NCBI GenBank assembly: GCA_951406725.2
Contig: OX597834.1
Span: 7,378,001 to 7,442,000 of the forward strand
Source: Octopus vulgaris
Lineage: Eukaryota
Direction: 5' to 3'
DNA: 64,000 nt
Part shown: piece after piece, positions 9,417 to 63,835 of the stretch
Layout of the letters: each line of letters opens with the position of its first letter
Position numbering within the stretch: the first letter of the stretch is position 1
The notes under the pieces: generated by a model
What the model saw: only the letters and a program-made list of their open reading frames with translations
The model's database searches: none
What the model was told of the DNA's origin: nothing
Made by a program: the position numbers and the translations under genes

Positions 9417-9600
9417 GTCTCTGTGTGTGTGTCTCTCTATATATGAATATATATACATATATGTATATATATACGCACACACACATGTATATATATATGT
9501 ATTCCATATAAATAAGGATAAGATCGTTATTTTAATTAATGGTCAAACATATCAAGTGGTAGCGTGGGAAAAAATCCTTAAAGTTTATAATTATTATTAA

Positions 9601-9997
9601 AATTATAAATAAGGGTATCTAAGAGATACCACCATGCTTGAAATAGCAGTCAAAACCTGACTCTTAAAACCACACAGAAGTGATCAACACAGCACAAGAT
9701 GAAAAGACAAATAGTTAAGTAAACTAGTAAAAATTGGATAAACCCAGACCCTGGATTTCTGACTCTGTATAAAAATACTTTCCTTTCGTCAATGAAATAA
9801 AACCAAGAGTTGTACATAATTACATACATATACGCACAAACATACGAATACTCGCGTATACGCAGGTGTACATACATATATTAGTTTATCTACTTGACCT
9901 TTCAGTTTGTGCTGTATTAAACACTTGATGTGGCTTTTAGAGTCAGGTTTTGACTGCTATTGTAAGCATGGTGGTACCTCTTAGATCACCTTATTAA

Positions 9998-10004
<7 letters not shown>
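9601..10004. mobile_element. Fold-back element family H2 with an HHR in the spacer
   Basis: Diverged inverted arms at about 9601-9726 and 9881-10004; homologous to 37364-37789; HHR on minus strand at 9743-9796. Confidence 0.7.
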
Positions 10005-10049
<45 letters not shown>

Positions 10050-35912: not shown

Positions 35913-36132
35913 TTTTAAGATATTAGAAAAAAACACTTTTTATCAATTCAAAATCAATAATTAAATTACACCATCTAGATGGTGTAATTTAATTATTCAT
36001 TTTGAATTGATAAAAGGTGGATTTTTTTCTAATGTTTTATATATATATTATTTTGTGTGGAATTTGATTTAGTATGTCTAAATTGAATTCTTTTTCCTTG
36101 TAAGTTTGGATTTTATTCCCTCAAATAATAAT

Positions 36133-36725: not shown

Positions 36726-37103
36726 ATCCAGGTTGGTACAGATCCAATATAACTTCTGCAAATTGTTTCGGAGACTAATTAATTCCAAAGACGAAAACGA
36801 AAAACTCTTCTTGAAATAAAGAATTAGTTTCTTCGTCAGGAGTTACAGGAATTACATATTGCTATGAATAATTACGACCGACAAAAATATACAAAGACCT
36901 TTCATAGCCCAAATGGGAACGAAGAAATAATCATTATTTGTTCGTTCCCGTCTGTTCTTGGTCGTAATTATTCATGACAATATGTAATTCCTGACGAATA
37001 ATCTATATTTCATTTCAAGAAGAGTATTTGGTTTTTGTCTTTGGAATTAATTAGACTCTGCAACAATTTGTAGAATTTATATCGGATCTGTACCAACCGG
37101 GAT
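36726..37103. mobile_element. Fold-back element with a decayed HHR in each arm
   Basis: Imperfect palindrome; HHR on minus strand at 36750-36845 and on plus strand at 36986-37077. Confidence 0.75.
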
Positions 37104-37289
37104 ATATATATATATATAATAAAATATTAGGGAATAAATCCAAACTTACAGGGAAAAATCAGATTATCTTTTATTAAACTTTTAATACATTTGATATATA
37201 TTTAAAATAATATAAATTAATTAATTTTATGTATTGGCTTATGTTTTTCATTGTTTTATTTGCCTAATAGTGGTTTTATCTCTAATTTA

Positions 37290-37363
<74 letters not shown>

Positions 37364-37368
<5 letters not shown>

Positions 37369-37789
37369 AAATAAGGATGTCTGAGAGATACCACCATGCC
37401 GAAATAGCAGTCAAATCCCTGACTCTAAGAACCACCTTAAATGTTCATATCGCACCATGAGATAAGACAGAGGGACAAAATAGACTAGCAAAAACAATAT
37501 TACTGAATAATTCAAGATCCTGGATTTCTACCTTTGCTTCAAATAAGCTTTGCTGTCATCAGTTGAATATATCAGATGGGCACATAAATACAAATTTATA
37601 TATACAGAACAAACGTTATACTTACATATAGGATCGTCCATACATATACATATTGTTTTTTTGCTAGTCTATTTTGTCCCTCTGTCTTATCTCATGGTGC
37701 GATATGAACATTTAAGGTGGTTCTTAGTGTCAGGGATTTGGCTGCTATTTCGGCATGGTGGTGTCACTCAGACATCCTTATTTTTAGTT
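37364..37789. mobile_element. Fold-back element family H2 with an HHR in the spacer
   Basis: Near-perfect arms 37364-37500 and 37650-37789; HHR on minus strand at 37510-37568. Confidence 0.8.
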
Positions 37790-38039
37790 GTAAAAAATTA
37801 TTACCTTTGTATGGTATTTATTCGCATGCTGGCCACTTGATAATACCGATATTTAAATATAGATATCATATATATATATATATATATAACGGGAAGGTTT
37901 ACGAAAATAAAAAAAAGACAAAGGCAGGTGGAGTACAAACAAACAAATGTATTAGTATGGCGCTCAGGAATAGAAATAAAACAAGTCTTTTACCTTTTAC
38001 ATACATACATACACACATACCCACATACATTCATACATG

Positions 38040-45426: not shown

Positions 45427-45706
45427 TGTATATATATGTAAGTATGTATGTATGTATGTATGTATGTATATATATATATACACACTTACATATGTATACA
45501 TTTACATATGTATATATATATATAATAAATATTAGGGAATAAATCCAAATTTACAGGGAAAAATCAGATTTAGGATTGAATCCAATTTTATAGTAAAATA
45601 TAATATAATATTATTAGAGACAAAACCACTATTATGCAAATCAAACAAAGAAAGACTTAATCCTATACATAAACAAATTTATATAAATTAAATATAATTA
45701 AGATAT

Positions 45707-45752
45707 CCACTACGATCGTTTCTTGTCACTTCTATTGACATTCATCAGGTGG
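45707..45752 (-). ncRNA. Type I hammerhead with intact core
   Basis: ccac-CTGATGA-atgtca atagaag tgacaa-GAAA-cgatcg-TA-gtgg. Confidence 0.82.
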
Positions 45753-46234
45753 TTTCAAGACCTTCTTTGCAAGTTTTAAACATATACACTTACATATGTA
45801 TATCTATGTGTGTGTGTTTTTCTGTCTGTTTGTCTCGCTTCCACAACTTGACAACCGTTGCTAATGTGTTTACATACCCGTAAACTAGAGCTTCGTCAAA
45901 AGAGAACGATAGAAAAAGGCATAAAAAAAGAAGAACGGGGATCGAATCATACGACTAAAAATTCTTCAAGGCGGTGATCCAGTATGGCCGCAGTCTAATG
46001 ACTGAAACAAGTAAAAGGGGGGAAAAGATAAAACATAGAATATTTGGGCTGGATAGAACCGGTTTGAACGTGAAAGGGTCAAAGGATCTCCTTTACACGA
46101 ACTAAAATTTCACCGTTCATGTATGCACCTATCAACTATATACAAGCTTGTGTGTATATGTATGTATGTGTGTGTATGTCTTTGTTAGTATCTGTCTGTG
46201 TGTATGGGATTATTTTTATATTGTAGCATTCATA

Positions 46235-47199: not shown

Positions 47200-47525
47200 T
47201 ACTCTTTTACTCTTTTACTTGTTTCAGTCATTTGACTGCGGCCATGCTGGAGCACCGCCTTTAGTCGAGCATATCGACTCCGGAACTTATTCTTTGTAAG
47301 CCCAGTACTTATTCTATCGGTCTCTTTTGCCGAACCGCTAAGTGACGGGGACGTAAACACACCAGCATCGGTTGTCAAGCAATGCTAGGGGGACAAACAC
47401 AGACATACAAACACATACACACACATACATATATATACATATATACGACAGGCTTCTTTCAGTTTCCGTCTACCAAATCCACTCACAAGGCATTGGTCGG
47501 CCCGGGGCTATAGCAGAAGACACTT
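47200..47525 (-). mobile_element. SINE A, 5'-truncated at a fold-back HHR element
   Basis: Match stops at gaagacactt. Confidence 0.88.
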
Positions 47526-47652
47526 TTCTCATCAGGAAAAGCAAGGAACTTATGTCAACATCAAGATGCACAAAACACTTTTCACTATGGGCTCCGTGTG
47601 AGCAGTCATCTAAAAGTTTTTTTGCATCTTGATGTTGACATAAGTTCTTTGC

Positions 47653-47735
47653 TTTTCCTGATGAGAAAGCGGCATAATATACTCCTTATTCCTTCGCAAT
47701 TAGGAATATGCAGCCTTCGAAACATATGTCGAAAA
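47653..47735 (+). ncRNA. Type I hammerhead with intact core
   Basis: ttttc-CTGATGA-gaaagc...gccttc-GAAA-catatg-TC-gaaaa. Confidence 0.83.
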
Positions 47736-47776
47736 TAAAGGAATTTTGTTAATTCGTCGTTCAACTCCATTCTTTC

Positions 47777-49944: not shown

Positions 49945-50165
49945 AAAACTGGATCTCTTCTTGTCAGGTGTCCCAGATGAACCAACTTCACGGCAGGAGG
50001 TGCAGATGAGGGCAGCTGCATCGAACTCTCTCATGCACCATATGGCAATTGCTACAAAGCATACGTGAAGTAAAATTATGTAGCAACACCAAATGGCGGT
50101 GCCCAAGCATGGCCACAGCTCGTGAGCTGAAACTAGATAAAATAAAAAAATAAATAAATAAATAA
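49945..50165 (+). mobile_element. Retroposon family E
   Basis: Matches 35695-35912; (AAAT)n tail. Confidence 0.75.
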
Positions 50166-50561
50166 TAAGCGTGTGCATCTGTGTGTGTGTGTGTGCGCGC
50201 GCCTTTGCTTGTATATTGGATGATGTATATAGTTACATGCTGAAATGGTTAACTGCTCTAGTTGTCCTCTCCGTTAAAACGTATCAGTGGCATTGCTGTC
50301 TCAGACACACTTAATAAAGAAATAAGAAAATGCTTCCTACTATCTGTTCTTTTATTATCCGGCTTTTCGTATTCTGGAAAACACTTTTTTTTATTTCTTG
50401 CTTTCGGTTACTTTTGTCAGCAAGGTGTGTCTGAGACAGCAATGTCACTGATACGTTTTAACAGAGAGGACAACTAGAGCAGTTAACCATTTCAGCATGT
50501 TACTATATACAGCATCCAATATGCACAGGCGCGCGCACACACCCAGATGCACACGCGTATA

Positions 50562-50608
<47 letters not shown>

Positions 50609-60919: not shown

Positions 60920-61480
60920 AACACCCAATCCAAGAAACACAAATGTTTACAATATTATCCACCAGAACATTCCACTACCAAACCAAGACCCAAGAATGAA
61001 ACAAGCATTCGAAATACACAAAAATAATCAATAGTAAAAGACAATCAAAGTGTCTCCAAAAATTCCTCACAAGTGCTAAATTACCTTCCACAATTCCTAC
61101 ACCAACAGTGAAAAAGAGGTGCCGCCCCAACCGCAGGACATGCATCAACTTTATTGAGAACATAACATAGGAATTCAAATCAGGACAGATTTTACCGTAA
61201 AAAAATCACTTGACATGTTCTTCAAGGAATTGAATATACGCTACCAAATGTCATGGATGTAATGAAGATTACATAGGTAAAACAGAGCTTACTCTAAGAA
61301 ATAGACTAACCATTCATCAACAACAAATACGCGACCCCAGTACTAGAAAGATTCCCTTGAGTAGACACAGGTATATGTGCAAAAAATAAGTCCCCCAAAT
61401 TCCTGATCTTCCCACAGATGAAACACTAATAAACAAAGTAAATATTTTTATACAAAAGTACAAACCACAACTTTACGAAC
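60920..61480 (+). pseudogene. Penelope-like element ORF remnant with GIY-YIG endonuclease
   Basis: CSSRN*IYATKCHGCNEDYIGKTELTLRNRLTIHQQQIR, upstream NSKRQSKCLQKFLTSAKL linker, terminal FIQKYKPQL. Confidence 0.85.
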
Positions 61481-63678
61481 TTTAACAGAGTACATATATT
61501 AGAAAACTAATTTAATAAAATATACATAAAAATAAAACTAATAGATACTAATATATGGCATATTCATGAATATCTATAATTTACCTCTTAGATACACTTA
61601 TTATATATAGCGTTTAACTTCTTAAACACACTAATACTCTATATGCATCCTTCAAAGTAAAAATGATAACCGAAGTTCTATAAGCTCATAATAACCCTAA
61701 TGGAGTCCTACCCCATATTTTTAAAATATGATACTTTTTTTAGCATTTAACTAAATGTTTAGAATTTCTGGTCAGCTATGGAATTGTACTGAAACATATA
61801 TGTAGGTTCTTTTATTTTTTCGAGCTTTATCACTTGTAATCATTTTATTTGTACTGTAATGTTTTTTAAAAGAAATTTTTAACATTTTATAACATACAAA
61901 TAAATTATTCATACATTCATTTGCTTCTCCATTTTCTTTTCCCTCAATATATATAATTGAACATTTCAGGCCCGAGGCAAAGTGTGCCGTGTTTGGTCTC
62001 TGAAGGGAAAATATCCACATAGACTTTTGTCATTAGACCTACACTTAATTACAAGATCAGAGAAACAAAGAAATATAACACTTCAGTAAATACCTATTAC
62101 TCAACTAGGAAATCACACGTTCATTAGAATTAAACCAAATATCTGTATATTCCTTTGATATTACCTTATCTAAGATATCCATTATATCTTATATGTATCT
62201 TTTTTATTATTCCTCTACTTATGTTTTTGTTAATACTGATTTTATGTATAAAAACATAAATGTAAATATAAAATACACACATACACATTTAATTCCCAGA
62301 GACTGCTTTCAGAGAGCCAGCTCTTTCATGTATTTTCACAATGTCGTATTTACATTTTAATGAATATAAATTCAATGCATGCTTTATAAGCATATCCACT
62401 CATTCAAGCATGTGAATGAAAATTTATGACGAGCTTGCCCAATTATATTTGTTAATGGAAACAATAAATATTGCCTTTTGATAGAATATTTCATATTTTA
62501 GAAGACACTTTTCCATACACGTACGGATCCTTTCGTGAAAATACTGAGAAGTCTGTAAGCTTATTTCGAAACTTGTAAGGCTTAATATTAGAATAGACAT
62601 ATTCTGAAATATTAGAATAGACATTTTCTTCCCGATTCTCTTAAAACAATATGAATTCTAAAGAGAATCAAGACTATTGAAAAGGTTGCAAGACGCAACG
62701 GAAATTTAAGGAAAATAAAAATAAAAAATAAGTGGAAATTTTACAGAGGCACAAAAAGAAAATGACTCTCCCCAGACACAACAAAATATGCTTCAACACA
62801 CGAACTCATATAAAGAATCTTGCACACCAAATCCAAAAACGAAAAATAATTCTAACGAATATTTCCATGTATATCTTTCAGAACAATGAAGTTAGCGACT
62901 AGGCAGAATCTTTAGACAGTCGGACAAAATGCTTTGCCGTATGTCTTTCGACTAAATATATCCTGGTTTTAAATTCTGCTCACATCAACTTCGATTTTAT
63001 CCCTTCGGATCGATAAAATAAAGTACCAATCAAGCACAAAGGCATCGAAGTTACAGACTTGTTCCCAAATTTGTCCCGAAATCCTTCTAGAAAATACTTT
63101 TTGAATTCTATATTTTCCAGTTATTTCCATTCTGGTTTCGAACCTTCCATACCTTCATAATTAAAAATTTCTTTCTCAGTAAGATCGCTTATACTTACCT
63201 CCCAGATCCCTTGCCTTTCCCTTCCAATTTTTTCAACCAAAGAAAGAGTTCGTGGGACCGCGATTTGATGAGGCACGGAATAATAATGGCTGAGAAGAAG
63301 CTAGTGGAATAGTTAACGGCAAAAAGACTGATAAAATAAGTTCTAGACTAAATGTATAAGTCCTCGAGTCAATTTGTTTGAATTAAAGCCCTTCAAGGCG
63401 TTGCCCCAGCGTGGCCGCAGTCAAATAACTGAAACAAGTAAAAGAATGAAAGTACATGTCCCTTAATAAAAAAGGTATGCCCACTCTTGGTATAACCTGT
63501 GTGTAGGTTCATTATATAAATATTTTGCGTACGCGCTCGTATGTATGTATGCCTCTGTATGTGTGTGTTTGTGTGGGGGTGTGCACGAGTATGTGTGTGA
63601 GTGTGTGTGTGTGCATGCGTGTGTGTATGTGTTAAAAGAAGATGAATCTTATTTAGCTTTTATTCATCTAAGCGAAGG

Positions 63679-63835
63679 ATGTTGCGAGTCAGTTGTTCGC
63701 ATTCATTTAAGTCACAAATATATAAACTCGTAGCCCCGACTACTGGATAAGTCTTTAAACGACTTATCCAGTAGTCGGGGCTATGAGTTTATATATTTGT
63801 GACTTAAATGAATGCGAACAACTGACTCGCAATAT
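63679..63835. repeat. Near-perfect hairpin with 72-75 bp arms and a 7-nt loop
   Basis: 63682-63753 is the reverse complement of 63761-63832 with one G/T pair. Confidence 0.95.

Follow-up and report, generated by a model that had tools for sequence, protein, structure and literature searches.

The fold-back repeat described here (hereafter the window copy) lies in a 64,000-nt stretch of Octopus vulgaris DNA, contig OX597834.1, which was analysed as a whole and is called the window. We conclude with high confidence that it is a truncated two-armed, ORF-less repeat, likely laid down by a Penelope-like enzyme and likely dead. The family to which it belongs likely behaves like a non-LTR retrozyme, and its insertion pattern is the one published for endonuclease-bearing Penelope-like elements (PLEs).

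Aligned with the family monomer, the window copy is a 5′-truncated repeat copy joined head-to-head to a second truncated, tailed copy (Table 1). The earlier note had described near-perfect arms forming a stem of about 137 bp. The arm alignment (137 nt paired, 4 mismatches and two small indels) and the predicted fold, one long stem of about −252 kcal/mol on either strand, agree with it, and the hammerhead string that it quoted was found exactly at its place on the minus strand. Of the unit 37364..37789 given there, the arms stand but the right end does not, as the true unit reaches ~37866 via a tail on one arm. This tail (about 77 nt) is about 20 nt short of the tail end of most copies. Two rare variants, m471 C>T and an ATTG variant at about m352 (m, monomer position), are common to both arms. 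The window copy is without monomer part m101-195, its long arm has 13 differences from the family majority, and it resembles a decaying copy. A target-site duplication is unreadable at this locus because (TA)n stands on both flanks.

Table 1. Features of the window copy and its flanks (positions in the window; m, position in the 485-nt monomer).
Feature	Position	Strand	Description
Left flank, target microsatellite	37283..37363		81-nt AT-only run, mostly (TA)n
Long arm, 5′-truncated sense copy, m196-485, end at site 1	37364..37653	-	93% to real monomer L008
Left arm of 137-nt inverted repeat	37364..37500		arm alignment, paired with 37789-37650
Type I hammerhead motif	37510..37568	-	core 37562-37556 and 37528-37525, palindromic stem III
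Head-to-head junction	37650..37653		4-nt overlap ATAT, assignable to either arm by alignment
Second arm, inverted, 5′-truncated, about m347-485	37650..37789	+	monomer alignment
Tail, first part of the following monomer (m1 to about m72)	37790..37866	+	on the second arm only; site-2-type end
Right flank, target microsatellite (TA)n	37867..37889		sequence

The locus of the window copy is a nest of such insertions. Directly to its left, separated by (TA)n, lie two further ones (36726-37103 and 37102-37298): a 378-nt fold-back that has CTGACGA in each arm and GAAG instead of GAAA, and a stub of the family found at 45508-45760. Elsewhere in the window, 9507-10005 is a diverged sister copy, about 69% identical to the monomer and of the same anatomy, with the tail on the long arm and T for C3 in the hammerhead core. 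Two further type I hammerhead motifs with palindromic stem III were seen at 45700-45760 (minus strand; A.A at the base of stem II) and at 47525-47775 (inside a fold-back). More fold-backs, these without a CTGANGA core, lie at 35916-36039, 50142-50582 and 63679-63835, and a degraded PLE GIY-YIG fragment at 61024-61488.

Upstream alignment of copies gave a 485-nt ORF-less monomer, the end of which continues into its own beginning. The best genomic matches were mostly limited to positions 1-290 of the query, that is one arm and the loop and not the whole fold-back. The genome searched (2.8 Gb, 227 contigs, microsatellite-rich) contained at least 367 exact matches to a 31-nt end motif, a count that is a lower bound on copy number. 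For the census, 140 loci were fetched; removal of 10 duplicates and of 8 loci with less than 85% identity (L214 and 7 members of a diverged subfamily) left 122, among which L030 and L201 may represent a single insertion that was duplicated. Its three sources bias the sample: similarity searches supplied 33 loci, the hammerhead pattern 50 and the end motif 39. Divergence of the arms from the majority had a median of 4.3% (n = 151), and the burst is therefore not very recent.

Head-to-tail monomer joins were present, and an ORF-less unit of this kind with a type I hammerhead has the make-up of a retrozyme. Two complete hammerheads in tandem were found only in L245 among the loci examined, with stem III mutated; the window copy has a single motif, and no long array of the 485-nt family was seen in these loci. 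The 485-nt circle is predicted to be strongly self-paired (z = −5.7). Arm lengths close to one monomer (488-507 nt) were found repeatedly (L007, L012, L024, L082, L104, L015, L018 and L019); such arms may stem from a single round on a circle or from halts at AT-rich patches. Upstream of the hammerhead, the monomer has a 30-nt palindrome with two TATCGATA (m49-80; L008:1354-1385), plus TTTGGCGGG at m156-164. These motifs resemble DRE and E2F promoter sites and may act as a promoter inside the element. In the window copy, the palindrome is damaged in both halves.

Instead, the 485-nt unit might represent the terminal part (pLTR) of an autonomous PLE with long copies that escaped the sample, which had 122 loci against at least 367 exact end-motif matches. 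The longest copies (for example L007, L012, L024, L026, L093, L095, L233 and L245), however, run 5′ into a preceding monomer, and among the family loci sampled none runs into an ORF. At L202:1505-1535 the 5′ end of a family copy is joined, on the same strand, to a truncated RT fragment of an old PLE, which does not resume downstream of the family copy. That fragment belongs to an unrelated old family, and we regard the pLTR interpretation as quite improbable.

The ends of the copies followed a countable rule. Two fixed 3′ ends about 90 nt apart were recognised: site 1 is m485, and site 2 is the tail end, mostly near m90. Both are preceded by a hairpin and a CCTTATT motif, and the pairs of the site-1 hairpin are kept in its common variants. 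Head-to-head arms were present in 68 of the 122 loci and a partner arm was missing from 54. The outer ends of two-armed loci were site 1 plus site 2 in 59/68; one locus had site 2 at both ends, none had site 1 at both, and 8 had an internal end. Thus a tail stood at one end only in 59 of the 60 loci with two classifiable ends. Single-armed loci ended at site 2 in 32 cases and at site 1 in 22. The 5′ ends were variable, with arm lengths from none to about 700 nt, and the arm junctions (n = 68) comprised 40 overlaps, 23 inserts and 5 blunt joins. (TA)n was found within 30 nt of 114/136 outer ends, as compared with 11% of random window positions. With variable 5′ truncation, a one-sided tail and a (TA)n bias, the insertions are of PLE type; variable PLE-type ends were one of the alternatives that the earlier note had named.

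MITEs are short non-coding elements with terminal inverted arms, TA flanks, fixed length and symmetric ends. A DNA-transposon derivative with 137-bp terminal inverted repeats (TIRs) and a TA duplication, in which a hammerhead was captured by chance, would agree with the near-perfect arms at the ends of the window copy and with its TA flanks. Yet matching site-1 ends occurred in 0/68 two-armed loci, 54/122 loci are without a head-to-head partner arm, and arm length has the wide range given above. Unlike MITEs, the octopus family has no fixed length and no symmetric ends, its monomer occurs in tandem, and it carries a ribozyme. Membership in a MITE family was rejected, as the census of 122 sampled loci found neither fixed symmetric TIRs nor uniform length, and this origin has hardly any chance of being right. 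The remark in the earlier note that the copy only looks like a MITE was sound. It had also named fixed TIRs and target-site duplications, together with an unconserved hammerhead core, as findings that would speak against its reading; when this was run as a census, no fixed TIRs were found and the core proved real.

A closer competitor keeps the same family and enzyme and derives the inverted arm from self-priming (snap-back) of one cDNA or antisense template, with endonuclease trimming at site 1. For rotifer Penelope elements, the available text of PMC3846280 describes the same insertion pattern and argues for self-priming from junction palindromes. In the octopus family, the snap-back geometry fits in 32/59 loci, and the stops of the two arms are no more than 15 nt apart in 14/59. 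Such near-symmetric stops were in excess in the end-motif set (10/26 vs 4.6 expected, p about 0.003) and not in the selected set (4/33 vs 2.2 expected). Rare variants common to both arms agree with it, as they do with two cDNAs made on RNA of one source: arms of the same locus had 7.6 such variants per 1000 nt in common vs 0.67 between loci (11-fold; 25/52 loci), a sharing that could also stem from later gene conversion between arms. As a comparison of a circular with a linear multimeric template, rare variants in common were counted in tandem overlaps (5 in 1494 nt) and in inverted arms (53 in 7018 nt). Against snap-back, the tail-less arm outreaches the tailed arm by over 15 nt on the 5′ side in 27/59 loci, the window copy included (the reverse was seen in 18/59), and a longer tail-less arm cannot therefore be a snap-back copy of the tailed arm. 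In most of these loci neither arm contains the other; this holds for the window copy, and each of its arms was therefore copied from a template and not from the other arm. Moreover, the part of PMC11167929 available describes a PLE enzyme for which cutting and extension of both strands, from two start sites on the RNA, were seen in vitro. We consider snap-back rather unlikely, and prefer separate copying of the two arms.

The hammerhead is a real feature of the family, as the earlier note had proposed. A pattern of core plus stem III gave 185 exact matches in the genome vs 0 for the reversed control; it is not a chance pattern, because the control gave none. An Rfam search returned no hammerhead match, only sub-threshold miRNA and snoRNA matches; the family nonetheless has a type I hammerhead core and three helices with covariation. 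Compensatory swaps separate two subfamilies in stem I (A-U/C-G) and stem II (U-A/A-U), with 96.7% of cells paired in the subfamily alignment of 19 sequences; this covariation comes to some two events separating the two subfamilies, and an intact core had been a criterion in the choice of loci. In loci of the main subfamily not chosen by the pattern, the core kept 368/378 cells (97.4%) vs 9556/9898 (96.5%) for the rest of the monomer. Core decay that matches the rest of the monomer is what dead copies would be expected to show. The subfamily-B copy L091, the one copy tested, likewise folded poorly, and single copies are therefore often damaged.

In the window copy, the cut is predicted between 37516 and 37515. 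The poor pairing at the base of stem II pointed out in the earlier note was seen, and it has two layers. One is family-wide, an unpaired A before GAAA in nearly all among the matches listed; the other consists of helix-breaking changes specific to the copy, with a private C-to-G at 37531 that breaks basal stem II. The basal column reads C.A, A-U, G.G, C-G, and its base is not paired. The predicted pair probability of basal stem II is ≤0.09, as against about 0.8 in a majority-type copy, and the predicted fold energy of the hammerhead is −0.2 as against −4.5 kcal/mol. The stem III palindrome has a predicted pair probability of ≤0.1 in the monomer and a predicted duplex energy of −9.0 kcal/mol. 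Cleavage as a dimer has reportedly been described by Lunse et al. The family ribozyme is predicted to process multimeric RNA in a dimer-dependent way, and that of the window copy to be a crippled passenger that needs a dimer partner, with no or weak cleavage.

The earlier note had supposed that a transcript of this locus would be a hairpin able to open its own loop, with a stem that feeds ADAR or Dicer. If read through, the locus would yield a 137-bp stem from either strand, and stem I pairing is still predicted at about 0.4 in the full-length context. Basal stem II, however, is broken and stem III unstable in the monomer, and the copy has lost m101-195 and accumulated its long-arm differences. 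Most two-armed copies, moreover, have no ribozyme: among those of the end-motif set (n = 26), 19 have no hammerhead, 6 have one and 1 has two, and the hammerhead in the loop is incidental because 19/26 hold none. A functional hairpin RNA of this kind is very improbable, and the supposition was not upheld. No ADAR imprint was found on the sense strand of genomic family copies (A>G 8.25 vs T>C 8.17 per 1000, no bias). The joint expected from splicing at GTAAGT near m224 was absent from 4 contig sets. Four presumed-RNA contig sets cover parts of the monomer; strand, ends and locus are not readable from such contigs.

An enzyme source was sought among the PLEs of the genome, where GIY-YIG candidates number in the thousands and PLEs form several families. 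One PLE family has intact 781-aa frames with RT, a CX4CXXC linker and GIY-YIG (Neptune-type); CX4CXXC is given as the Neptune-type finger in the available text of PMC8557442. The GIY-YIG fragment in the window is 42% identical to this family. Two of its copies, L056 and L057, have the 781-aa RT plus GIY-YIG frame, an upstream open frame of 333-378 aa, and tandem repeats behind the stop. No RT plus GIY-YIG ORF was attached in cis in 130 family loci; a PLE protein match was present in 2/130, and neither proved to be the partner. No monomer match beyond 15-nt motifs was found in 45 PLE stretches (some overlapping), and the monomer ends were absent from 24 loci of a further PLE family. Searches via GIY-YIG loci, the end motif, two sister families and the neighbour at L202 found no autonomous partner. 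The old (AAT)n-flanked PLE family (L277-L298), to which the RT fragment at L202 belongs, has the hammerhead-like core TTGACAA, similar to the U3-A8 variant described in PMC4209133, as far as its text was available. Mismatches at the base of stem II were also seen, by eye, in hammerhead-like motifs behind PLE endonuclease fragments (L059, L063 and L068).

The two sister families carry TTTGACTGCTATTTC or a close variant plus a CCCTTA end; their shared pattern gave 2691 matches vs 5 for the control, and those of their loci that were examined had no attached PLE ORF. They have the same one-tail pattern and the same end motif as the 485-nt family. Their partner arms ended at site 1 in 25/37 cases, 5/37 were unclassified and 7/37 were scored as site 2. 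The 7 exceptions were rejected, as they are not true end pairs and one match in each runs into the next monomer. One sister family, which has a canonical hammerhead and looks younger, forms arrays of 584-589-nt units. Tail-out inverted arrays of these units with identical end motifs were observed at C1:50431334-50435737 and similar places.

Two primings, one per cut strand and per site, on RNA of the same source are the simplest reading that we infer for these ends. A PLE reverse transcriptase-endonuclease, supplied in trans, would nick both strands of a (TA)n tract. Each nicked strand would prime one cDNA on an uncleaved RNA of more than unit length; one cDNA would start at site 1, the other at site 2. 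Both cDNAs would stop at variable points and would then be joined via short overlaps. The fold-back would be the stretch copied by both cDNAs, a by-product of insertion, and a hammerhead would stand in the loop only when one arm had crossed it and the other had not. Arm stops at the ribozyme cut were looked for: five arms begin at m333-338, next to the cut (m333/334), the main start cluster is at m381-420 and many arms cross the cut, in a sample partly selected for an intact hammerhead motif. Twin priming is known from L1 elements. The two primings may show a strict division of labour, in which one enzyme dimer on one RNA would use two start signals (hairpin plus CCUUAUU, ~90 nt apart), one per strand; we would argue for this no more strongly than against it. 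If it is true, the inverted end and the one-sided tail would be two products of one twin-priming reaction, and the complete cis signal would lie in a two-site module of ~190 nt, common to at least three ORF-less families in the genome.

The comparisons below refer to the available portions of the papers cited. PMC8557442 describes PLE insertions as 5′-truncated, with partial tandems and an inverted copy next to them; their tail often stands at one end only, and their targets are (TA)n. Like these endonuclease-bearing PLEs and those of PMC3846280, the octopus family is head-to-head, one-tailed and 5′-truncated, with partial tandems, (TA)n targets and a hammerhead near the 3′ end. It differs from them in its tail (30-40 nt there, about 90 nt here) and in being ORF-less. 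The one-tail rule is counted here (59/60), whereas the two papers have "often" or "optionally". For Anolis Poseidon PAc, PMC11167929 describes an enzyme that cuts and extends both strands, with two RNA start sites that bracket the tail; the enzyme is a predicted dimer, hammerhead cleavage is unneeded for insertion, and targets are AT-rich. The Poseidon start sites lie in the ORF start, with no site-per-strand assignment in the text available, whereas both sites of the octopus family lie in non-coding RNA. Each octopus site follows a hairpin and a CCTTATT motif, unlike the Poseidon PAc sites as described. Formation of the second strand, the inverted end and the tail in PLEs is stated to be unresolved (PMC8557442, PMC11167929), and a literature search on twin priming in PLEs found none.

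The PLE hammerheads reported in PMC4209133 have a palindromic helix III and low activity, and they occur as opposite-strand pairs at distances of 100-700 bp. The octopus motif shares with them the dimer-predicting palindromic stem III, an extra base at the 5′ end of stem II and the opposite-strand pairs. Unlike those hammerheads, it adds an A between stem II and GAAA in nearly all among the matches listed, and its G10.1-C11.1 pair is often G-U. An axolotl retrozyme has a U.U mismatch at the base of stem II (PMC7229834). Retrozymes are defined, and tied to PLEs, in PMC7229834 and bioRxiv 10.64898/2026.07.22.740005. As in the non-LTR retrozymes described there, the octopus monomer is ORF-less, tandem-capable, AT-rich, has a type I hammerhead, is strongly self-paired as a circle and co-occurs with PLEs. 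Octopus copies, however, are mostly truncated singles and inverted pairs, with no long arrays seen. At 485 nt, the monomer is above the 170-400 nt of PMC7229834 and inside the range 51-972 of bioRxiv 10.64898/2026.07.22.740005. A literature search on cephalopod retrozymes gave, apart from the Naiad PLE survey, just unrelated titles, and in the literature searched the family extends retrozyme-like elements to a cephalopod-type genome. Among these systems the window copy is an ordinary PLE-type fold-back stub, one of many; its family offers a counted one-site-per-arm rule, which is likely a trace of how Penelope-type elements insert, and a short defined RNA for a model of two-sided priming.
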